Shown in pieces: positions 5,062-34,774 of a stretch of DNA of 37,164 nucleotides. A model generated the notes under the pieces. That model searched no databases. It had not been told where the DNA came from and saw only the letters and a list, made by a program, of their open reading frames with translations. The position numbers and the translations under genes are program-made. The DNA lies in IMG/VR virus record IMGVR_UViG_2690315831_000002, one strand, 5' to 3'. The stretch comes from a virus. Its lineage: Duplodnaviria; Heunggongvirae; Uroviricota; Caudoviricetes. The first letter of the stretch is position 1; each line of letters starts with the position of its first letter.

Positions 5062-5110
5062 CAATAGCATGACAATAGCAATAGCTATTGGTGTGGTCAA
5101 TAGCAATTAG
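5062..5110 (-). promoter_or_regulatory. Putative OL operator cluster with pL
   Basis: Heptamer CAATAGC occurs at 5062, 5073, 5079 and 5098, including the perfect 12-bp palindrome CAATAGCTATTG at 5079-5090. On the minus strand, TTGACC (5100-5095), a 17-nt spacer and TATTGT (5077-5072) form a promoter. The same heptamer recurs between cI and cro. Confidence 0.55.
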
Positions 5111-5350
5111 TATTGATAATGTTTGATATACTTGTTCTGATTGATAATTAAATGAATTTTTATAAAAAAGAGTATGAAGACTTATTGGTGTGGCTGAAAT
5201 TTGTACAGCTTTAATGTGCCTCGTGACAGAGGGGCATCGGGTTGTGGTGAGCTCGGTAGGTTGGCAGCAAATTTAATCGAATATTGGTAGTCTGAGTTCT
5301 TATGTGTATTTTTTTAGTCAGTTGCTAAATGATACATAAATGACTTATTA

Positions 5351-5381: not shown

Positions 5382-6989
5382 TTAATTTATCTTTTCAACA
5401 TTTCCATGAATCAACAAGTCGTAGGCAAGAAATAGTTTCCTATACTGGGTTTTTAAATTGTCAACGTCGCATGCCTTGAATTGAACAAACGCTTCTTTTT
5501 TAACATAATCTTCAATCTCCTCTTTGGGGATATTTTTTATGTTCTTAATGACTATAGACAATTCTTTGTACTTTTTGAACGTTGCATCCTTTATATCTTT
5601 GATGTTGGTGTAAATTTTATTTGCATTGATTTTATCTAAGGTGATTTTATTGAGCAAGTCGTCTAGTTTTCCGTGGCGTTCAATGCGTTGATTTAGTTTT
5701 AACACATATTTAGCTGGCAAACTTAACTCTTTCAAATTACATGAGGTTATAGTTTTTGAAAATGGAAGTTGTAATGAGTTTACTGAACCTAATATGAAAT
5801 CTATGGCTAATTTATTAGATATTTCATTTTTATTAAATAAGTAGTCTTCAAGATAATTTATTTCTTTAACTTGTGTGAATACATACTTTTTATCGCCTAG
5901 AGCAACAACTAAATTTTTTCCTTGTTTAACACTTTCTTCAAGTCTGTCTAAGTCAGAAGGTGAAACCAATAGAGTATCTAAGTGCCCTTTTTCACCCTCA
6001 TTAATGATAAGTGTTTTAATGGCTCTTTGATACCTTAAAACATCATAAGGTGAGAGCCCTTCATCAACAGCACTGATCTCATCATAGATCTGTTTATAGT
6101 TATCTGTTTTAACAGATGTATATGTAATTTGTAGCTGTTGATCGGTAATCTGTTTTGGTACTACTTCCTGTTCATTCTCTTTATATTCAATCAAAATTAT
6201 TCTTTCAGCTGATTTTCGACCATCTTCTCTAGGTAGTTGTGAGGAAAAATCAGAAAGAAGTTTCTTTACATTCCTGTCAGTTAAAGAATATCCAAGAAAA
6301 ACTATTGGATTTTTAATCATGTTAGATAGTATCTTGGCACTAATGAGTATAGATTTGTTGTCATATTTTTCGTAATCATCTTTATTTATGATTATTGAGT
6401 GTGGATCCTTTATATCACCATGTATTTTGTATAACTCACTCCAGCCAATAGTATCTTCGAAAAAACCATTATTTCCAATATAGAGTTTTGGAATTACATT
6501 TTGCTCTTGAAGTAAATTTTCTATGAAAGCATCATAATTTGTAGTGATGATTATCTTGGCCTTTTTTATTAATGTTTTAAATGATGCTAATTCATCAAGA
6601 TTTACATCCTTTCTGATTGTGTTATTAGAAAATCTTTGGCATATGGCGTATTTAAATGGTGAAATATCTTCACTAAAAACCCTCTTGGCATCTAGTCCAT
6701 TTAATTTTAATTTGCCAGTCCTAAACAATAGATTGTAATCATTTTCAATTTTACTTGCTGCCTCTGTATAAATCTTATGATCGATATCATTATCACTGTT
6801 ATTTTTATGTGATTCTTTTATTGTTAAAAGATAACTATAGAAATCATTTGTGGGATTTGTTATTTTCCAATACTCGTTTAATAGCTCTTCCCACGTTGGG
6901 TAGTTCTCTAAATATCTTTTTGAAATGCCTGAGCCAATAAAGACTATTGGGTAATTTTTGAATTCAAAATTTTTTTTTGACATATCCAT
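5382..6989 (-). CDS. SIR2-family (SIR2_2-like) protein with an uncharacterised ~260-aa C-terminal domain; candidate NAD+-dependent defence effector
   Basis: 535 aa in a low-GC island. The ordered SIR2_2 motifs are VFIGSGIS (aa 16-23), TTNYD (149-153), KIHGD (188-192) and FLGYSLTD (231-238). It lies between OL and cI on the cI strand, the lambda rexAB slot. Confidence 0.75.
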   Translation of the reverse strand: MDMSKKNFEFKNYPIVFIGSGISKRYLENYPTWEELLNEYWKITNPTNDFYSYLLTIKESHKNNSDNDIDHKIYTEAASKIENDYNLLFRTGKLKLNGLDAKRVFSEDISPFKYAICQRFSNNTIRKDVNLDELASFKTLIKKAKIIITTNYDAFIENLLQEQNVIPKLYIGNNGFFEDTIGWSELYKIHGDIKDPHSIIINKDDYEKYDNKSILISAKILSNMIKNPIVFLGYSLTDRNVKKLLSDFSSQLPREDGRKSAERIILIEYKENEQEVVPKQITDQQLQITYTSVKTDNYKQIYDEISAVDEGLSPYDVLRYQRAIKTLIINEGEKGHLDTLLVSPSDLDRLEESVKQGKNLVVALGDKKYVFTQVKEINYLEDYLFNKNEISNKLAIDFILGSVNSLQLPFSKTITSCNLKELSLPAKYVLKLNQRIERHGKLDDLLNKITLDKINANKIYTNIKDIKDATFKKYKELSIVIKNIKNIPKEEIEDYVKKEAFVQFKACDVDNLKTQYRKLFLAYDLLIHGNVEKIN

Positions 6990-9712: not shown

Positions 9713-10410
9713 AAAACATCGCCGCACAGATGGTTAACTTTGACCGTGAGCAGATGCGCCGGATCGCCAACAATATGCCGGAACAGTACGACGAAAAGCC
9801 GCAGGTACAGCAGGTAGCGCAGATCATCAATGGTGTGTTCAGCCAGTTACTGGCAACTTTCCCTGCGAGCCTGGCTAACCGGGATCAGAACGAACTGAAC
9901 GAAATCCGCCGCCAGTGGGTTCTGGCTTTCCGGGAAAACGGGATCACCACAATGGAACAGGTTAACGCAGGAATGCGCGTAGCCCGTCGGCAGAATCGAC
10001 CATTCCTGCCATCACCCGGGCAGTTTGTTGCCTGGTGCCGGGAAGAAACATCCGTTACCGCTGGGCTGCCAAACGCCAGCGAGCTGGTTGATATGGTTTA
10101 CGAGTATTGCCGGAAGCGTGGCCTGTATCCGGACGCAGAGTCTTATCCATGGAAATCAAACGCGCACTACTGGTTGGTTACCAACCTGTACCAGAACATG
10201 CGGGCCAATGCGCTGACTGACGCGGAATTACGGCGTAAAGCTGCCGATGAGCTGACCTGTATGACCGCGCGAATTAACCGTGGTGAGGCGATACCTGAAC
10301 CAGTAAAACAACTTCCTGTCATGGGCGGTAGACCTCTAAATCGTGCACAGGCTCTGGCGAAGATCGCAGAAATCAAAGCTAAGTTCGGACTGAAAGGAGC
10401 AAGTGTATGA
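9709..10410 (+). CDS. P: Replication protein P (DnaB loader)
   Basis: 233 aa, near-identical to lambda P (MKNIAAQMVNFDREQMRRIANNMPEQYDEKPQVQQVAQIINGVFSQLLATFPAS...). Confidence 0.95.
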   Translation: MKNIAAQMVNFDREQMRRIANNMPEQYDEKPQVQQVAQIINGVFSQLLATFPASLANRDQNELNEIRRQWVLAFRENGITTMEQVNAGMRVARRQNRPFLPSPGQFVAWCREETSVTAGLPNASELVDMVYEYCRKRGLYPDAESYPWKSNAHYWLVTNLYQNMRANALTDAELRRKAADELTCMTARINRGEAIPEPVKQLPVMGGRPLNRAQALAKIAEIKAKFGLKGASV

Positions 10411-10442
10411 CGGGCAAAGAGGCAATTATTCATTATGAGTAA
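10407..10442 (+). pseudogene. ren: ren remnant (first 10 codons only)
   Basis: ATGACGGGCAAAGAGGCAATTATTCATTAT encodes MTGKEAIIHY, the N-terminus of lambda Ren. It overlaps the P stop as in lambda and ends in a stop two codons later, where low-GC DNA begins. Confidence 0.7.
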
Positions 10443-10508
10443 CTTTCTAAATTTTTTGAGCCAGATTAGTGGTCTTGGATTCAGTTTACGTCTCAGATAC
10501 TGAGAAGA

Positions 10509-10523
10509 ATCACAATTTGTGAT
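10509..10523. promoter_or_regulatory. 15-bp palindrome upstream of the PRTase-like gene (candidate operator)
   Basis: ATCACAA-T-TTGTGAT has perfect 7-bp arms and lies ~90 bp upstream of ATG 10614. No binding protein is assigned. Confidence 0.25.
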
Positions 10524-10613
10524 ACATGTTAACATTATGACTTTTAAGGCTTTAACTGAATTATTTTAAGAGTATTCTGACCCTTTCGTATCAATGCATG
10601 AACAGGAATCCAC

Positions 10614-11633
10614 ATGTGTTACAGTAATGTTACAGATCGTGATCTTATGGGGCAAATTGCTACTAAACTAAATGACTATCGAAACCCTCCTCAAGGTGGC
10701 ATGAGCATTGATCATGTTAATCGATGGATTAATCAATTTGAGTTAACTGATAGGCGATTTGTCTTAGAGGAAACGGACCGATTAATGGGGATTGGATACT
10801 TTTCTGAGAACGACTATCGCAGGGTTATTAGTAGTATCGCCACTGATGAGCAAAATGAAAGTTTCTTTCAAACTGCAGCGTTTCTCGATATTCAGAACCA
10901 AGGTACCAGTCAATCTGAGTTTTTGGATTTACTTCGAGATGATTGTGTAGAAGAATTCAACGTTGTGACCAGACTTTCACAACGTCAAAGAGTTAGTTCA
11001 TTCCGTGAATTTATTTACGTTGACGATGTTTTATTCTCCGGAGCTAAGGCAATCAATGATTTAATTTGGTTTATTGAGCACTTTAAACTCCAAAATATTA
11101 CAATATTGGTGTACTTTTTAGGTGGGCACACATATTCAACATGGAAGATAAAAGACCAACTTGAACGAAGATTTGCGGGCAGAAATATTTCAGTTGGCGT
11201 TGGTGGAGGTGAGTTTGTATTTGTTGAAAATAAACTCCGAAATAGTTCGAATTCGGAGGTTTTATGGCCAAAAGCGCAAAGTGTATCAATACCTGAATGG
11301 GCTGACGGTCAAATACATTATTTAGGAACATATCGAAACGGTTACGTCGCGAATAAAATTTTTCCTGATGAGCAGAGACGTGATCGTTTTGAAACTATTC
11401 TGACAAAAGTTGGGTTTGATATCCTTGGTCATAGTCAAAATCCCTCTGCTGTCATAAAGCCCTTAGGCTTTTCAACTTTCAATGGTGTTGGGTTTGGCGG
11501 AACTATCTTTACTTTCAGAAACTGCCCAAATAATACCCCTCTCGCGTACTGGTGGGGAACTTATCTTCGAACAGGAAATAGAGCTCTGGATTGCTGGTAT
11601 CCACTTATGAAGCGTAATGTGTATAATCGGTGA
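10614..11633 (+). CDS. Type I phosphoribosyltransferase-like (PRTase-fold) protein, function unknown
   Basis: 339 aa, low GC. The call rests on one motif: REFIYVDDVLFSGAKAINDL (aa 131-150), which resembles the PRPP-binding loop (hydrophobic run-DD-x-x-x-(S/T)G). The first ~130 and last ~190 aa are unassigned. Confidence 0.45.
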   Translation: MCYSNVTDRDLMGQIATKLNDYRNPPQGGMSIDHVNRWINQFELTDRRFVLEETDRLMGIGYFSENDYRRVISSIATDEQNESFFQTAAFLDIQNQGTSQSEFLDLLRDDCVEEFNVVTRLSQRQRVSSFREFIYVDDVLFSGAKAINDLIWFIEHFKLQNITILVYFLGGHTYSTWKIKDQLERRFAGRNISVGVGGGEFVFVENKLRNSSNSEVLWPKAQSVSIPEWADGQIHYLGTYRNGYVANKIFPDEQRRDRFETILTKVGFDILGHSQNPSAVIKPLGFSTFNGVGFGGTIFTFRNCPNNTPLAYWWGTYLRTGNRALDCWYPLMKRNVYNR

Positions 11634-12247
11634 TCATGAGCTATAGACTATACCTGTTTCACAACACAGTTTCTTTCAGGAAAACCACCGAGAAATGGGG
11701 TGGTCTTTCCAACATGGCCAAAGGATATCCGCTCTTCGTTAATGGTATACCCATTCAATCGAGTGAAATTCTTTACCAAGCATGCCGATATCCAGACTAT
11801 CCAGATATCCAAAGGGTTATTATTACCCAAGCCAACCCTTACGAAGCTAAACAAACCGCCAGAACCTTCGAGGCCAAAACCCGTACTGGTTGGGAAAAAA
11901 ATCGAGTTTCGGTAATGAAATGGTGTGTCTGCGTTAAGCTTTGCCAGAACTGGGAATCGTTCTTCGCGCTATTGGATAGCACAGGAGATCATGACATTGT
12001 TGAGCACTCAGAGAAGGACCAATTTTGGGGGGCTAGTAAGGACTCCGAAGGTAACTTTTATGGCATGAACGTGTTAGGTCGTATCCTTATGGATGCGAGA
12101 GATATTGCAAGAAAGAAGGGGCCTGCAGGGTTTGCTACGATACCGCCGCTACCCTTGGATAGGTTTCTTCTGCTCGGGGAGCAAATACGTGATGTCACTT
12201 TCTCTCCACCACCGATGGATTCAGGGCAAAGCTTATCGCTTTTTTAA
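11630..12247 (+). CDS. NADAR (DUF1768, YbiA-like) domain protein
   Basis: It aligns by eye to E. coli YbiA along the whole domain: LSNMA..P..VNG....SSEILYQACRY versus FSNFA..PI.VDG.WPTSEHYFQAQKF, and IVEHSEKDQFWGA...G.NVLGRILMDAR versus LVEHTENDAYWGD...GKNRLGYLLMELR. The start is GTG 11630 (overlapping the upstream stop) or ATG 11636. Confidence 0.8.
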   Translation: MIMSYRLYLFHNTVSFRKTTEKWGGLSNMAKGYPLFVNGIPIQSSEILYQACRYPDYPDIQRVIITQANPYEAKQTARTFEAKTRTGWEKNRVSVMKWCVCVKLCQNWESFFALLDSTGDHDIVEHSEKDQFWGASKDSEGNFYGMNVLGRILMDARDIARKKGPAGFATIPPLPLDRFLLLGEQIRDVTFSPPPMDSGQSLSLF

Positions 12248-12288
12248 TGTGGCTGTTGTTCCTCTCTCGGTCGTGACAGTTCTGCAAC

Positions 12289-12309
12289 CCCGCTTTGGCG
12301 GATTTTTTA
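12289..12309 (+). terminator. Weak terminator-like hairpin after the NADAR gene
   Basis: CCGC-tttg-GCGG is followed by ATTTTTT. The stem is only 4 bp. Confidence 0.25.
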
Positions 12310-12531
12310 TAAATTATGCAACTTATTGACTTGATACCGATATTTCAGACTTTAACATAGCAGCCAAAATCTAGGACGAAGGCGACAAAGTAAACGTTGA
12401 ATTGGCTGCCATCGGCGTAGCGTTCAAAGAGTGGATGAATATGTCGGTTATAGCGGAAGCGGTGATGCGTGAGCAGACATCGCTCTGCCCAAGGCATCCG
12501 CCCCTCGACATCTTAAGCAGGAAGGTGAAAA

Positions 12532-13014
12532 ATGATAAGTGCAGAAGGACTGCAGCGGTTACTTAATTTATCGGAGCCTCCATCTGATGAACTGATTGAT
12601 GTTTATCTTCAATTCAGCATGATTTTTCCTAGGGTCGAACAAAGTTTTTTTGGTGGCTTTGCTAAGGGGGAAGACAGTTTAAATTATGCTCGAACGTTAC
12701 TTGACGCCGGGATAAAGGTGCCCAACGAACTTTTTCACGATTTTAAGCAGAGATACATTTTGAACGGGGATGCGCAGGAAAGACTTGACGCCCTCTGTTT
12801 CGGTCGAGAGAGAGATAAGCGGGGAATAGTTAATGGGCTTCAAAATGACGCAGCAACAGATCTAAACACCATGTCTACAGTATTAAAGATAGTTATAAGG
12901 ATAAGAAATAACCTTTTCCACGGAAATAAAGACGCTTATCTTTTTGTTGATTCTCAAGAGCAAGCGCAACTATTGAGATGGTGCGTGAGATTTCTCCAAG
13001 GATTATTAAATTAA
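12532..13014 (+). CDS. Small HEPN-domain protein (Rx4H motif)
   Basis: 160 aa, predicted helical. R125-NNLF-H130 lies within [12 protein letters not shown], near the C-terminus as in HEPN RNases. AGGAAGGTG precedes the ATG. Confidence 0.55.
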
Positions 13015-13203
13015 TCTGCCTTTGATTTTCACTAATCAACTCGCCATAATCATGTCATCGGAGCCTGAACAACTCCGGTGACTTCTGCGCTAAACGGGGA
13101 CGTTTATGCGCACATACAATCCAAACTCTCTTCTCCCTTCACAGATGCAGAAATGCACCTGCGATTTTTTGCATCCAGCGCCTGACCTCTGCGGAGGTGA
13201 AGC

Positions 13204-13659
13204 GTGAACCTACCACAAGATGGCATCAAACTGCATCGTGGTAACTTCACCGCTATCGGTCAGCAGATCCAGCCTTATCTGGAGGACGGCAAATGCTTTC
13301 GCATGGTGCTTAAACCGTGGCGCGAGAGACGCAGTCTTTCCCAGAATGCACTTAGCCACATGTGGTACAGCGAAATCAGTGAATACCTCATAAGCAGGGG
13401 GAAATCGTTCGCTACTGCAGCATGGGTAAAAGATGCTCTCAAACACACATACCTCGGTTATGAAACCAAAGACCTGGTTGATGTCGTAACCGGTGAAATC
13501 ACCACTATTCAGTCGTTACGCCATACCTCCGATCTTGATACCGGAGAGATGTATGTCTTCCTGTGTAAGGTTGAAGCCTGGGCGATGAATATTGGCTGCC
13601 ACCTGACTATTCCGCCGAGCTGCGAGTTCGAGCTGCTGCGCGACAAGCAGGAGGCGTAA
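13204..13659 (+). CDS. ybcN: YbcN-family nin-region protein (DLP12 type)
   Basis: 151 aa with a GTG start. [59 protein letters not shown] is recognised as near-identical to E. coli YbcN. Confidence 0.85.
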
Positions 13660-15515: not shown

Positions 15516-16319
15516 CTATTTCTTTTTGGGAAGTGGATACTTTAAGCTAACATTTTGAGTTTCTATATCTCGTGGCCCTCGAGTTTTATCATAAAAATAC
15601 CAGATATTAAATTTTCTCTCAGTGTGCCATGTATCATATTGCAAGTGATCCCAGCCTAAATATGAAGCAACATAGTTTGATACTCTTATTTTGGCTTCAG
15701 ATGAAGCTTTTCCTTGATATGCGCACATAACCGCACCTAAGAAAAAATCGGCTAGCTGAATGTTTTCAGATGCTTTAGAGTCTTTTGTCACTACACTGCT
15801 GATTATCCCTTTACGACCAAATTTTCTATTCAATATGTTATTGGCAATAACATTTAGTTCTTCATCAGCCTTTTTATAACGAGATGCGATAGGATCAACT
15901 TCAATCCTGAAGTAACTGTCTCTTTCAGGGTGTGCAGAAATTACAGAGCTAATTTTTGTGGTAATGAGATTTGTGAAGTGCTTTCTCCTTGCCAGGTCAT
16001 AATCTCCATTATGAAATGCCTTATTTACTATTGATTTTTCAACCACGATACAATGAAAAGCTAGCCAAGGAACTCTAAAGAATAAGTCGATCAGCTCAAG
16101 ATAAAATTCAGAGTATCTTTTTGAATGGGCTTTTTGCCATTTTATTTCTTCAAAAAAAACATGTTTTCTGCGTAGTTCTCTGATTAGTTGACAGAAATCC
16201 CCACGGCGTTGGTACTTCATCCACAGACTGCCAAAGCCGTAGAAACGTTGTCCATCAATGCCAGATTCATCGCAAGCAATATGCCAAATTAACTTACCAA
16301 TGTTATCTTTTTCTGTCAT
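15516..16319 (-). CDS. DUF3800-like protein
   Basis: 267 aa in a low-GC island. It has the N-terminal CDESG motif (IACDESGIDG) and the C-terminal QLADFFLGAV motif typical of DUF3800. It is antisense to the late operon. Confidence 0.6.
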   Translation of the reverse strand: MTEKDNIGKLIWHIACDESGIDGQRFYGFGSLWMKYQRRGDFCQLIRELRRKHVFFEEIKWQKAHSKRYSEFYLELIDLFFRVPWLAFHCIVVEKSIVNKAFHNGDYDLARRKHFTNLITTKISSVISAHPERDSYFRIEVDPIASRYKKADEELNVIANNILNRKFGRKGIISSVVTKDSKASENIQLADFFLGAVMCAYQGKASSEAKIRVSNYVASYLGWDHLQYDTWHTERKFNIWYFYDKTRGPRDIETQNVSLKYPLPKKK

Positions 16320-31673: not shown

Positions 31674-33656
31674 TTGCTCAACAAGTATAATGGAGTTCCC
31701 GTGGATACAGCAGAACATGATGGCAAATTTGCTTGGGCTAGTTTTTATGAGGCTTTTGCCAACGCGTTACTGACTTGGCGAAATCGTAGAGATGAATTAG
31801 TCAAAGGTATTCATCTAATTGCCTCAGGTGTGGAAGGAATGTCCCATCTGCAGGACAAATCTATTATGGGAGAGATCTTTCCCTTAAAAGACATTTGTCC
31901 GTTTACTACTATGGGCTTGTTCAATCGTAACTTGACCGACAGCAATCGCAAAATTATTGCTGCCAAGCTAGCGAATTTGTTGGGCGTGAACGAACCGATT
32001 CCTGACTCCTTTGCCGGAATCCCGCTGTTGAATAACCAAAAATCTTGGTTCTTTGGTTATGAAAAGTCACGCGACCCTAATGACATTGAATGCTTGTGGG
32101 AAATGTTCTCGCAGGCAATGACCTTTGCGGATAACCAGAATACTAACTCTGCAGACTTCACTGCCGCATATGACATCGCTTCTACAGTAATGAATGTCGG
32201 TTGGAATCTCACCATGGGGTTGTACTGGACCCGTCCTTGGTTCTACCCTACTTTAGATAGCCAGTCGCAGTATTACATTCAGACAGTGTTAAACATTAAG
32301 ATCATTAAAAACGGGGCAAAAGGTCGCTGTAGTGGACAAAGTTACCTGAGTCTTATGCGGGCGCTGAACGAGGTCTTTACCCAACCAAACTATCCGGTTC
32401 ATTCTTTCCCAGAACTTTCTTTATCAGCGTGGAATACAGATCTTAGCCAGTCTAAAGATGAGGTGGCAAATAGAACGTGGAAAGCCTCTTTACTGAATAA
32501 AATTAAGGCGTTATGCCTGAAAAAAAATGGCCCTTATTTCACTGCTTCGGAGTTGGAAGAAAACTACTTGGACGTATTCAAGGTAGAGCATCCTGAGAGC
32601 AAAACAGTTACAAGCTCAATCTACTTTTATCTACAGAAACTATGCAATGATGATGAGTTAAAGTCCCTTGAGTCCGGAAATTATGAATACCTGAATTTTG
32701 AGAAAAACGAATCCCAGACGATAACTGAGGAAACTGTCGAAGAGAGTGCGCCGTTGCCAAAACTCACTCACGTTCCTTATGACATCAGTCATCTGGTGCA
32801 GGATGGCTGTTTCTTGGAAGAGGCTAAGATCCAACTCACACTTCAGCGCCTGATCGACAAGAAAAACCTGATATTACAAGGACCACCCGGAACTGGAAAA
32901 ACCTGGTTAGCGCGACGTTTGGCGTACTGCTTGATGGGAGAAAAAGCACCTGAGCGTATTAGCGCGGTGCAATTTCACCCGAACCTCTCTTACGAAGACT
33001 TTATTCGCGGCTGGCGTCCAGGTAAAGAAGGGCAATTGACGCTAATTGATGGACCTTTTGTAAATGCAATCAAAACTGCAGTCAATAATCCTACCTCGAA
33101 ATATGTGGTGATAATTGAAGAGATTAATCGTGGCAATCCGGCGCAAATCTTCGGTGAAACACTCACGTTGATGGAAGCAGATAAACGCACGCCGACTGAG
33201 GCATTATCTCTTTCCTATCCTAAAAATGATGATGAAAAAATATACATTCCTGAGAATCTATATATCATCGGTACGATGAATATTGCAGACCGCTCACTCG
33301 CACTACTTGACCTAGCGCTGCGCCGTCGTTTCGCGTTTATCGATCTAAAGCCAGCTTTTAATGACGCGTGGAGAAACTGGGTAAATTATAATTACGCAAT
33401 TGATTTTGACATGTTAGCATTCATCAAATCTCGACTGACGGTACTTAACGATATGCTGGCAAAAGATGTTACCTTAGGACCACAGTTTTGTATCGGTCAC
33501 AGCTATGTCACCCCAGCTATCGGCCAAAAAATCAACGATGCCCAGGCTTGGTATGAACAAGTCGTTGATACAGAGATCTGCCCTTTGCTCGCCGAATATT
33601 GGTTCGATGCTCCAAATAAAGTCGATGAAGCCAGAAAAGTGTTATTAGCAAAATGA
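31674..33656 (+). CDS. McrB-family AAA+ GTPase subunit of a type IV (modification-dependent) restriction system, with a ~390-aa unassigned N-terminal domain
   Basis: Motifs are Walker A LQGPPGTGKTW, the McrB signature VVIIEEINRGNPAQIFGE (compare EcoKMcrB DEINRANLSKVFGE) and IIGTMNIADRSLALLDLALRRRFAF. The start is TTG 31674 or, more likely, GTG 31701, which is preceded by GGAG at a 5-nt spacing. Confidence 0.85.
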   Translation: MLNKYNGVPVDTAEHDGKFAWASFYEAFANALLTWRNRRDELVKGIHLIASGVEGMSHLQDKSIMGEIFPLKDICPFTTMGLFNRNLTDSNRKIIAAKLANLLGVNEPIPDSFAGIPLLNNQKSWFFGYEKSRDPNDIECLWEMFSQAMTFADNQNTNSADFTAAYDIASTVMNVGWNLTMGLYWTRPWFYPTLDSQSQYYIQTVLNIKIIKNGAKGRCSGQSYLSLMRALNEVFTQPNYPVHSFPELSLSAWNTDLSQSKDEVANRTWKASLLNKIKALCLKKNGPYFTASELEENYLDVFKVEHPESKTVTSSIYFYLQKLCNDDELKSLESGNYEYLNFEKNESQTITEETVEESAPLPKLTHVPYDISHLVQDGCFLEEAKIQLTLQRLIDKKNLILQGPPGTGKTWLARRLAYCLMGEKAPERISAVQFHPNLSYEDFIRGWRPGKEGQLTLIDGPFVNAIKTAVNNPTSKYVVIIEEINRGNPAQIFGETLTLMEADKRTPTEALSLSYPKNDDEKIYIPENLYIIGTMNIADRSLALLDLALRRRFAFIDLKPAFNDAWRNWVNYNYAIDFDMLAFIKSRLTVLNDMLAKDVTLGPQFCIGHSYVTPAIGQKINDAQAWYEQVVDTEICPLLAEYWFDAPNKVDEARKVLLAK

Positions 33657-34774
33657 CGACAATAACCGGGAGTGAGCAACATACAGCATCACGTATTCCC
33701 ATGCGAAATATCTGGATGCTGATGCTGTACGCTTCAGATCTGTTTCGTCAGTTAGGGCGCAATCAGATCGCAGTAGAAGATAACCCAGCAGAAATCCCCG
33801 ACCTGGTGGCGACAATCCTCCTTCATGAGATTACGCTGCGCCGACGTCGCAATTTAAATATGGGATACCAAACTTGTCATGCGGCCCTGAACCGGGTGAG
33901 AGGGCGCATTGACATACTGTATACTGCCAGTCATCAACTACTGGAACGGGGACAGGTTGCCTGCCATTTTCAAGACATAACCCTCAACACCCCCCGAAAT
34001 CGCTATGTTCGCTGTGCGTTAGAACGTCTGGCCTCAATCATAGTGAAACCGTCTTTGGCGGCAGATTGCCATTTTATGGCAATATCACTTCGCCGTGAGG
34101 GGATAAATGGAGGATATCCTGCCCCCCACGAATTACCCTCAGTGTGGCGTTTTGGACGCCATGATGCCGCAGATAAACCGATGGTCGATGCCGCACGATT
34201 AGCTTTTGAACTGCTGATGCCGACCGAAGATCAAGGCCAATATCTTTTACCTGCGCCCTCAAATAACCTTTACTGGATGAGAAGACTATTTGAAAAAGGT
34301 ATCGCTGGCTTATATCGTGTACACCTTGCCAAAACAACTTGGCAGGTCTCTGCAGGGAAAGAGCTGAAATGGGCGTTGAGCGATCAAAGTGCAGGTAGTG
34401 CAGAGATTTTCCCGACAATGAAGTCAGACATTATTCTGGAACACAAGACTGCCCAGCGGCGTATTATTATCGATACCAAATTTAATTCGATTCTGACAAA
34501 GGGTTGGCATCGGGAGCAATCACTACGTAATGGCTATATTTATCAGCTATATACCTACCTTAGAACACAGGAGAACAAGACGGATCCGCTTTCGCTCAAT
34601 GCCGCTGGTCTTCTACTTCATCCAGCTGTTGGCTATATGCTTAATGAGTATGTTGTCACTCAGGGACATAAGATCCATTTTGCTACAGTAGATATGACGG
34701 TAGATGCTAAAGCAATTAAAAAACAATTGCTGGCAATAGCCCATGATTGTGCAGGAGTCGCGGTTGATGACTAA
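33653..34774 (+). CDS. McrC-family nuclease subunit (PD-(D/E)xK)
   Basis: 373 aa with a 4-nt overlap with the McrB-like gene. The C-terminal motif SDIILEHK...RIIIDTKFN fits the McrC D...(D/E)xK catalytic core. Confidence 0.8.
   Translation: MTTITGSEQHTASRIPMRNIWMLMLYASDLFRQLGRNQIAVEDNPAEIPDLVATILLHEITLRRRRNLNMGYQTCHAALNRVRGRIDILYTASHQLLERGQVACHFQDITLNTPRNRYVRCALERLASIIVKPSLAADCHFMAISLRREGINGGYPAPHELPSVWRFGRHDAADKPMVDAARLAFELLMPTEDQGQYLLPAPSNNLYWMRRLFEKGIAGLYRVHLAKTTWQVSAGKELKWALSDQSAGSAEIFPTMKSDIILEHKTAQRRIIIDTKFNSILTKGWHREQSLRNGYIYQLYTYLRTQENKTDPLSLNAAGLLLHPAVGYMLNEYVVTQGHKIHFATVDMTVDAKAIKKQLLAIAHDCAGVAVDD

Follow-up and report, generated by a model that had tools for sequence, protein, structure and literature searches.

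A gene at the theta-ninB junction of a defective lambdoid prophage encodes a candidate solo HEPN-type abortive-infection RNase

What does a small HEPN-like protein do when its gene stands, with no evident antitoxin, just downstream of a two-gene anti-phage system in a lambdoid prophage, and does it belong to that system? The question is raised by a 37,164-nucleotide (nt) stretch of DNA from a virus of the Caudoviricetes (IMG/VR virus record IMGVR_UViG_2690315831_000002), referred to here at its full length as the window. An open reading frame (ORF) of 160 codons with an ATG start lies at 12532-13014 on the plus strand, downstream of a PRTase/NADAR gene pair now known as DS-32. An earlier note, made from the sequence alone, had read the motif R125-NNLF-H130 in its product, as direct reading of the sequence confirms, and had left three possibilities: a stand-alone abortive-infection RNase, a third component of the neighboring module, or an antitoxin-less relic. 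We favor the first, with a probability of about one half. The 160-amino-acid (aa) protein would be a solo, trigger-activated HEPN-type abortive-infection RNase, horizontally acquired as cargo in a slot between a phage theta gene and ninB, with no antitoxin and independent of DS-32. Beneath this reading lies a gene that is real and selected, has invariant residues of a catalytic type, is retained while the adjoining theta gene decays, and has relatives in defense-rich neighborhoods.

The protein (RefSeq WP_000622059) matches PHROG 27260, a group of unknown function, from end to end (1e-91) and has no match in Pfam, NCBIfam, or PADLOC; PGAP left the gene unannotated in one identical genome. Close homologues with 75%-97% identity were identified in Escherichia coli, Klebsiella aerogenes, Salmonella, and Enterobacter. 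An exhaustive HMMER search yielded 174 representative relatives, nearly all of 155-180 aa, and a word-indexed profile search yielded 144 further clusters from Alpha-, Beta-, and Gammaproteobacteria, Bacteroidota, and one archaeal metagenome-assembled genome, all labelled hypothetical. When one genome per species was scanned, the family was present in at least 183 species, including Cyanobacteria, Planctomycetota, Nitrospira, Acidobacteriota, and Desulfobacterota. The gene itself is carried by 56 of 5,426 complete E. coli genomes (1%). Searches of 50,697 deposited phage genomes with three different family queries returned nothing, as did a literature search for the family by accessions, PHROG identifier, and motif string, and Pfam scans of the longer members revealed no informative domain fusions. 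These small helical proteins of about 155-180 aa make up a widespread family that had not been described before.

Several polar residues do not vary within the family. E36, R74, R123, R125, N127, H130, and K133 are invariant in an alignment of 77 sequences that are 19%-78% identical to the window protein. The R-x-R-N-N and H-G-x-K columns are invariant again in a further 149 family sequences, and E36 is at least 90% conserved there. The position after R125 is N or H across the family, G131 and K133 are conserved family-wide, and R74-Y75, R123, and K133 are additional invariant residues outside the HEPN signature. The extended motif and putative catalytic site, R123-I-R125-N-N-L-F-H130-G-N-K133, is encoded at 12898-12930 (plus strand), with the R125 codon at 12904-12906 and the H130 codon at 12919-12921; the E36 codon is at 12637-12639 on the same strand. 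About 0.2 occurrences of R-x4-H are expected by chance in one 160-aa protein, so the motif alone is not significant; it is, however, invariant across both alignments, whose members share only 19%-50% identity. The ratio of nonsynonymous to synonymous substitution (dN/dS) is 0.10-0.16 between the E. coli, Klebsiella, and Salmonella copies, and the gene is under purifying selection. Two variations were seen within the family. Some enterobacterial ORFs (locus L055, 3923-4534; L060, 3878-4531) begin with a poly-glutamine stretch of up to about 30 residues before the conserved domain. In a few prophage copies the gene is split into two ORFs (L023; L024, 4001-4483; L025, 4001-4484; L050, 3932-4465), which indicates that it is dispensable in some lineages.

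The case for HEPN membership was examined against the published description of the superfamily. HEPN domains have an Rx4-6H motif at the end of core helix 3 or the start of the loop to helix 4, usually with a polar residue (N, D, or H) after the arginine; a conserved acidic residue often lies upstream, typically as Ex3[KR], helices 2 and 3 are frequently separated by helical inserts, the core comprises 100-120 aa, and the families are very divergent (Anantharaman et al. 2013, PMC3710099). An AlphaFold (AF2) model built from the 77-sequence alignment is all-helical, as the earlier note had supposed, with a pLDDT of 93.1, a pTM of 0.89, and five models in agreement. Helices are predicted at residues 4-11, 19-39, 46-58, 65-77, 81-89, 93-104, 110-130, 133-138, and 141-159. 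R125-N-N-L-F-H130 has the required spacing and a polar residue after the arginine. Judged from the predicted secondary structure, it forms the C-terminal end of helix 110-130, with H130 as the last residue, and is followed by a loop, a short turn, and the final helix 141-159, which places it at the end of the penultimate core helix. Helical inserts typical of HEPN proteins separate the first helices from helix 110-130, and E36 is an invariant acidic residue upstream of the motif, in the first long helix (19-39). Weak, sub-threshold Pfam matches to HEPN families were obtained for five of 226 family members: two to HEPN_RiboL-PSP (PF18735; best 1e-4), two to DUF3644, and one to DUF4209, the last two being classed as HEPN families (PMC3710099). 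These five are among seven weak Pfam matches in the scan of 77 members. Taken together, the conserved motif and the predicted fold make membership probable, at somewhat better than even odds. It is not proven, because the fold and profile links to known HEPN families are weak, and a convergent motif in a novel helical fold is the alternative. The HEPN signature proposed earlier is thus upheld as a conserved Rx4H motif in the right topological position, and only as probable for the superfamily itself.

The gene's immediate surroundings suggest that it occupies a fixed slot in lambdoid prophages. Directly upstream, at 12342-12535 (plus strand), is a decayed gene for a phage DNA polymerase III theta subunit (HolE / P1 Hot-like), recognized by partial profile matches, PGAP annotation, and alignment to intact theta. 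It includes a 43-codon ORF that overlaps the start of the 160-aa gene, runs from an ATG at 12435 (previously placed at 12440) to a stop at 12566, and had been taken for a possible remnant or small partner. The 54-codon frame that holds this ORF matches theta over profile positions 20-45 (Pfam DNA_pol3_theta, PF06440, 1e-06; NCBIfam PRK10969, 3e-07), at 28.8-30.2 bits and under the cut-offs. The small ORF has no full-length theta profile match in an intact frame, and PGAP annotates a theta pseudogene at its position. Frame analysis and DNA alignment with the intact Salmonella and Klebsiella theta genes located three defects: the start codon is lost (ATG to ATT, 12342-12344), an in-frame TAG occurs at 12372-12374, and a 55-nt frameshifting deletion between two CGNGAGCAG repeats follows 12476. 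On these alignments the small ORF is a fragment of a theta pseudogene; it is a remnant, as had been suggested, of phage theta and not of an antitoxin. The remnant keeps the theta C-terminus, and its stop codon, TGA (12533-12535), shares nucleotides with the start codon of the 160-aa gene. The last codons of the remnant contain the Shine-Dalgarno-like sequence GGAAGGTG (12520-12527, plus strand), a plausible ribosome-binding site for the 160-aa gene. The junction ending in AAGCAGGAAGGTGAAAAATGATAAGT is kept in the E. coli, Salmonella, and Klebsiella copies; in Klebsiella and Salmonella an intact theta gene lies directly upstream of the homologue, with a stop/start overlap (ATGA).

Theta adjacency was surveyed in 56 IMG/VR prophage loci with family members, which form 18 sequence clusters. 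A theta gene or remnant directly adjoins the family gene in five of the 18, and those five share only 21%-34% identity, while the adjacent theta proteins, beside this fast-diverging gene, are 59%-90% identical. Theta has been broken by independent nonsense, frameshift, and deletion lesions in at least 10 prophage lineages (the window, L017-L026, L029, L036, L040, L048, L050, L057, L066, L070, L071, and L072), for example by nonsense codons in the common E. coli type (TGA, codon 25) and in L050 (TAA, codon 28). The family ORF, twice the length of theta, is usually intact beside the broken gene and is itself broken in only a few lineages.

Within enterobacterial prophages, the usual position of the family gene is between the 3' end of theta and ninB. 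Cultured phages also have theta in this slot before ninB (HK639 and Klebsiella phage RothD; also P1 hot) with other small genes next to it, and no family member was found beside theta in HK639, RothD, SEN34, or P1 hot. The theta 3' end supplies a Shine-Dalgarno sequence and an overlapping or abutting start to whichever gene follows (window, 12519-12535; L002, about 5100-5125; L073, 1743-1746), and HK639_61 and an unrelated 67-aa ORF, the latter with a GTGA overlap, use the same junction. On the other side, homology to HK639, phage 82, lambda-like phages, and E. coli prophages that lack the 160-aa gene resumes at 13013-13021, just past its stop codon; the conserved pre-ninB segment at 13015-13203 (plus strand) defines this right border. 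These sequences are most simply read as a cassette slot with theta on one side and the pre-ninB segment on the other. The GC content is 37%-43% across DS-32 and the 160-aa gene (10300-13100; about 42% in the gene itself) versus 50%-56% in the flanking replication and nin genes, which is consistent with horizontally acquired cargo.

Beyond the enterobacterial prophages, defense genes recur around the family and no constant partner was found. In 79 species genomes, 414 neighbors within three genes of a family member fall into 349 clusters, the commonest occurring in seven loci. Tightly linked upstream or downstream genes are present in about a third of loci and vary in size and family. Immediate neighbors include type I HsdR, pAgo, Hachiman HamA, PARIS AriA, TIR effectors, AbiEii-like ATPases, several PADLOC candidate systems, integrases, and transposases. 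An unannotated 187-aa gene overlaps the family gene by 11 nt in Vreelandella (L012, 5488-6051 and 6340-9186; L013), and the two are followed directly by a Lamassu operon (Cap4-nuclease LmuA and LmuB, 8e-201). The Agrobacterium copy adjoins a NERD/UvrD helicase and a SACS/NOV_C protein. No MNT-type gene was identified among the ORFs scanned around the 160-aa gene or in the annotation of the identical E. coli copy, in agreement with the earlier note, and no MNT or other nucleotidyltransferase neighbor was found in the window or in the Klebsiella, Salmonella, Agrobacterium, Vreelandella, and Flavobacterium loci. Some unannotated neighbors do recur. Rhizobiales copies are flanked by proteins of 531 and 514 aa (L008, 3380-4975 and 5734-7278), and a 514-aa ORF occupies the same downstream position in three viral contigs (L041-L043, 4518-6062), where the family ORF looks truncated; the likeness of these ORFs is one of position and length. 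The 514-aa ORF may be a lineage-specific partner. When scanned with Pfam and PADLOC, the recurrent neighbors of 531, 514, and 187 aa gave no match.

By analogy with a characterized protein, HepS, these features can be assembled into a mechanism. The 160-aa protein would be made in the lysogen and held as an inactive oligomer until infection by another phage supplies an activating signal. The active site would form between two Rx4H motifs in the oligomer and act as a metal-independent RNase. Cleavage of RNA (tRNA or other) by a composite R125/N126-N127/H130 site, helped by E36, R74, R123, and K133, would then abort the infection, as it does for HepS, a solo HEPN protein of a prophage. The RNase activity, the oligomeric autoinhibition, the trigger, and the defense phenotype are all carried over to the 160-aa protein by inference.

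Several results weigh against this proposal. Foldseek comparison of the model with the Protein Data Bank (PDB) gave nothing (best E value 0.78, TM score at most 0.3), and PDB sequences searched with the single protein and with each of two profiles yielded only chance matches, neither HEPN nor HepS. No curated HEPN model reached threshold for any family member scanned, with no match at all for the window protein, and a second batch of 149 members compared with Pfam produced unrelated chance matches and no HEPN family. E36 is not in the usual Ex3[KR] form. PADLOC 2.0 returned four single, chance-level matches for 77 family members, and none of the NCBIfam defense models was matched by the 160-aa protein. 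Promoter-like sites near the gene were no more frequent than in shuffled sequences, so expression in the lysogen is not supported. In intact phages the gene would share delayed-early nin transcription, which fits a phage-serving role as well.

The first of these results bear on whether the protein is a HEPN RNase at all. It could instead have a novel helical fold in which R-x-R-N-N-L-F-H-G-x-K serves other chemistry or ligand binding, its likeness to HEPN being convergent. Solved HEPN folds are unmatched and curated HEPN profiles stay below threshold; the nine-helix architecture exceeds a core of 100-120 aa, and the invariant R74-Y75, R123, and K133 are foreign to the HEPN signature. However, the form of the motif, its helix-end position, and the upstream acidic residue agree with the published description, five of the seven weak Pfam matches are to HEPN families, and HEPN proteins are divergent and often have helical inserts. 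We consider a non-HEPN fold rather unlikely.

The position of the gene raises a different possibility, that of a delayed-early enzyme (an RNase or RNA-modifying enzyme for host takeover or counter-defense) that serves the phage itself and is retained in prophages only incidentally. In favor are its place in the early nin region, with the replication genes on one side and ninB on the other, its orientation along early transcription, and its translational coupling to theta; no convincing promoter of its own was detected. A gene that serves phage growth is nevertheless at odds with the lack of a match among the deposited phage genomes, with its intactness in defective prophages whose phage genes are decaying, and with the many members in non-phage defense islands. 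The identical E. coli copy of the window prophage (NZ_CP191562.1, 267275-302742; locus L077) illustrates this decay: frameshifts disrupt the portal and tail-fiber genes, most of the tail genes are absent, and one recombinase has become a pseudogene. The defense-type cargo in the same defective prophage is intact. A role in phage growth is unlikely.

A further reading joins the enterobacterial alleles to phage theta as a functional two-part module. Theta could be an inhibitor or self-immunity factor in the prophage's own lytic cycle, or the HEPN-like protein could monitor or act on the epsilon-theta part of polymerase III, for instance by sensing the binding of theta to epsilon. In the former scheme the solo RNase would guard the lysogen, and theta, translationally coupled to it, would be made only in the lytic cycle. 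Such a module would explain why theta decays repeatedly in defective prophages that keep the RNase gene and why highly divergent alleles (21%-30% identity) are found where theta ends. In its favor, an intact or remnant theta adjoins the gene in five of the 18 divergent clusters, the stop/start overlap (ATGA) is present in the window's cluster, and decay is seen mainly in prophages, at least some of them defective, in which self-immunity would be dispensable. But theta occupies the same slot without a family member in HK639, RothD, SEN34, and P1 hot, unrelated genes share its 3' junction, and theta is not a neighbor outside enterobacterial prophages. Its repeated and apparently harmless loss beside an intact 160-aa gene also argues against an essential antitoxin. 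We regard a theta module as improbable.

That the protein is a third, accessory or effector component of DS-32 is very improbable. DS-32A (10614-11633, plus strand) is a PRTase-like anti-phage protein that matches Pfam PRTase-CE and scores 304 bits on the NCBIfam equivalog DS32_1_antiphage (cut-off 250). DS-32B (11630-12247, plus strand), an anti-phage protein of the NADAR family, matches Pfam NADAR and scores 260 bits on the equivalog DS32_2_antiphage (cut-off 240). PGAP names both as anti-phage proteins in the identical E. coli copy. The proximity that suggested a third component is real. The 160-aa gene is on the same strand, 284 nt (not 285) downstream of the NADAR stop at 12247, and both modules have a lower GC content than the backbone. 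The hairpin and T-run noted earlier between them are present, as a weak 4-bp GC hairpin (CCGC-TTTG-GCGG, 12290-12301) followed by ATTTTTTAT (12290-12309 in all, plus strand), possibly a leaky terminator 3' of DS-32B. The hairpin is below the criteria of the terminator scan and was not called, and shuffled sequences fold as well as this region does (z = -0.04). An Rfam search of 10300-13400 identified no RNA family.

Distribution separates the gene from DS-32. DS-32 was validated as a two-gene defense system (DefensePredictor, bioRxiv 10.1101/2025.01.08.631726). Among the complete E. coli genomes, the 160-aa gene is present in 56 and DS-32 in 63, and the two are adjacent in three; 53 of the 56 carriers have no DS-32. 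In about 40 E. coli genomes, which are most of the DS-32 carriers, the unrelated 67-aa ORF takes the place of the 160-aa gene after DS-32. No PRTase or NADAR gene is near the Klebsiella and Salmonella homologues. Within the window the decayed theta gene separates DS-32 from the 160-aa gene. Because DS-32 works as two genes, adjacency is found in only three genomes, and homologues occur without DS-32, the third-component idea is rejected; it is largely refuted by distribution, and the gene is independent of DS-32. Two inspected E. coli copies, IAI1 and FDAARGOS_1251, have a DUF4145-domain gene upstream of the 160-aa gene instead of DS-32, which suggests that the slot upstream of theta is also a variable site for defense cargo. 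The IAI1-type DUF4145 protein (L071 and L072, 2557-3309 in each) has 250 aa and belongs to a HEPN family, with a variant motif, GNHGSH, that lacks the arginine. An hhalign comparison of the 160-aa family with this protein of IAI1 gave nothing, and with the motif arginine missing it is a poor comparator.

Last, an inert relic or spurious ORF, which the missing PGAP annotation in one identical genome and the few broken copies (L023-L025 and L050) might suggest, is scarcely credible and is excluded because the family is conserved and selected, with a dN/dS of 0.10-0.16 across genera, 174 representative homologues that keep the invariant polar residues, and a confident structure prediction.

The remainder of the element, integrated at icd, contains other cargo, including iss and lom. 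A gene at 5382-6989 (minus strand), upstream of the cI-like repressor gene, encodes a SIR2-family protein of 535 aa that matches the PADLOC candidate PDC-S25 (8.8e-235) and the STALD region of ThsA; from these matches it is probably another defense gene of the prophage. Downstream of Q and on the opposite strand, a DUF3800 protein (15516-16319, minus strand) matches the PADLOC candidate PDC-M04A (3.4e-34). An AAA ATPase and McrC pair, resembling McrBC type IV restriction, lies at 31674-34774 (plus strand) at the far end of the element, by a duplicated icd fragment.

If the 160-aa protein is an active solo RNase, the HEPN repertoire gains another widespread single-gene abortive-infection family, one that escapes current PADLOC, NCBIfam, and Pfam models. 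The theta-ninB junction of lambdoid prophages is marked as a slot for defense-cargo cassettes and may be useful for mining further systems. For DS-32 a false lead is removed, as it needs no HEPN effector. The gain is a well-defined candidate and not a new principle.

Compared with known systems, the window's theta remnant is collinear with intact prophage thetas that are themselves about 73% identical to P1 Hot; unlike P1 Hot and E. coli HolE it is a pseudogene, with its start lost, a nonsense codon, and the 55-nt deletion. DS-32 is a physical neighbor of the 160-aa gene and is likewise cargo of low GC content, in the same slot within the early region of a lambdoid prophage, whereas the 160-aa protein matches no NCBIfam model and is encoded outside the PRTase and NADAR operon. 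With the HEPN superfamily as a whole the family shares the Rx4H motif, N or H after the arginine, the helix-end position, an upstream acidic residue (although not as Ex3[KR]), the inserts, and a context of defense islands and prophages; it differs in the extra invariant R74-Y75, R123, and K133 and in a similarity to solved HEPN structures that is at noise level. HepT, of the HEPN-MNT type VII toxin-antitoxin system HepT/MntA, is also a small HEPN-type protein with Rx4H. The HepT motif is RX4HXY, in which the tyrosine can be modified by AMPylation. The 160-aa protein has no tyrosine two positions after the histidine (H130-G-N-K), and no adjacent MNT antitoxin gene was found in any examined locus of its family.

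The premise that a small HEPN protein needs an MNT or other antitoxin is outdated, as HepS (HEPN Solo), from the Gifsy-1 prophage of Salmonella Typhimurium 14028, is a published solo abortive-infection protein (PMC13043305). At rest HepS is an autoinhibited, non-toxic tetramer; the tail-tip protein J triggers it, and its targets are the anticodon loops of tRNA, which it cleaves (PMC13043305). Its motif is R100-H105, compared with R125-H130 here, and tetramer, trigger, and anticodon-nuclease activity are demonstrated for HepS, whereas the present family is known from sequence and a model. Profile and single-sequence PDB searches found no homology to HepS (its entries are presumed to be in the 2026 copy), and no HepS candidate was found in the deposited LT2 Gifsy-1 genome, the gene being strain-specific to 14028. 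The likeness is therefore one of analogy and not of membership. Both are small single-domain Rx4H proteins with no antitoxin or partner, and in each case the gene is one of the accessory genes that follow the replication genes in a lambdoid prophage; HepS is the best functional analogue of the 160-aa protein.

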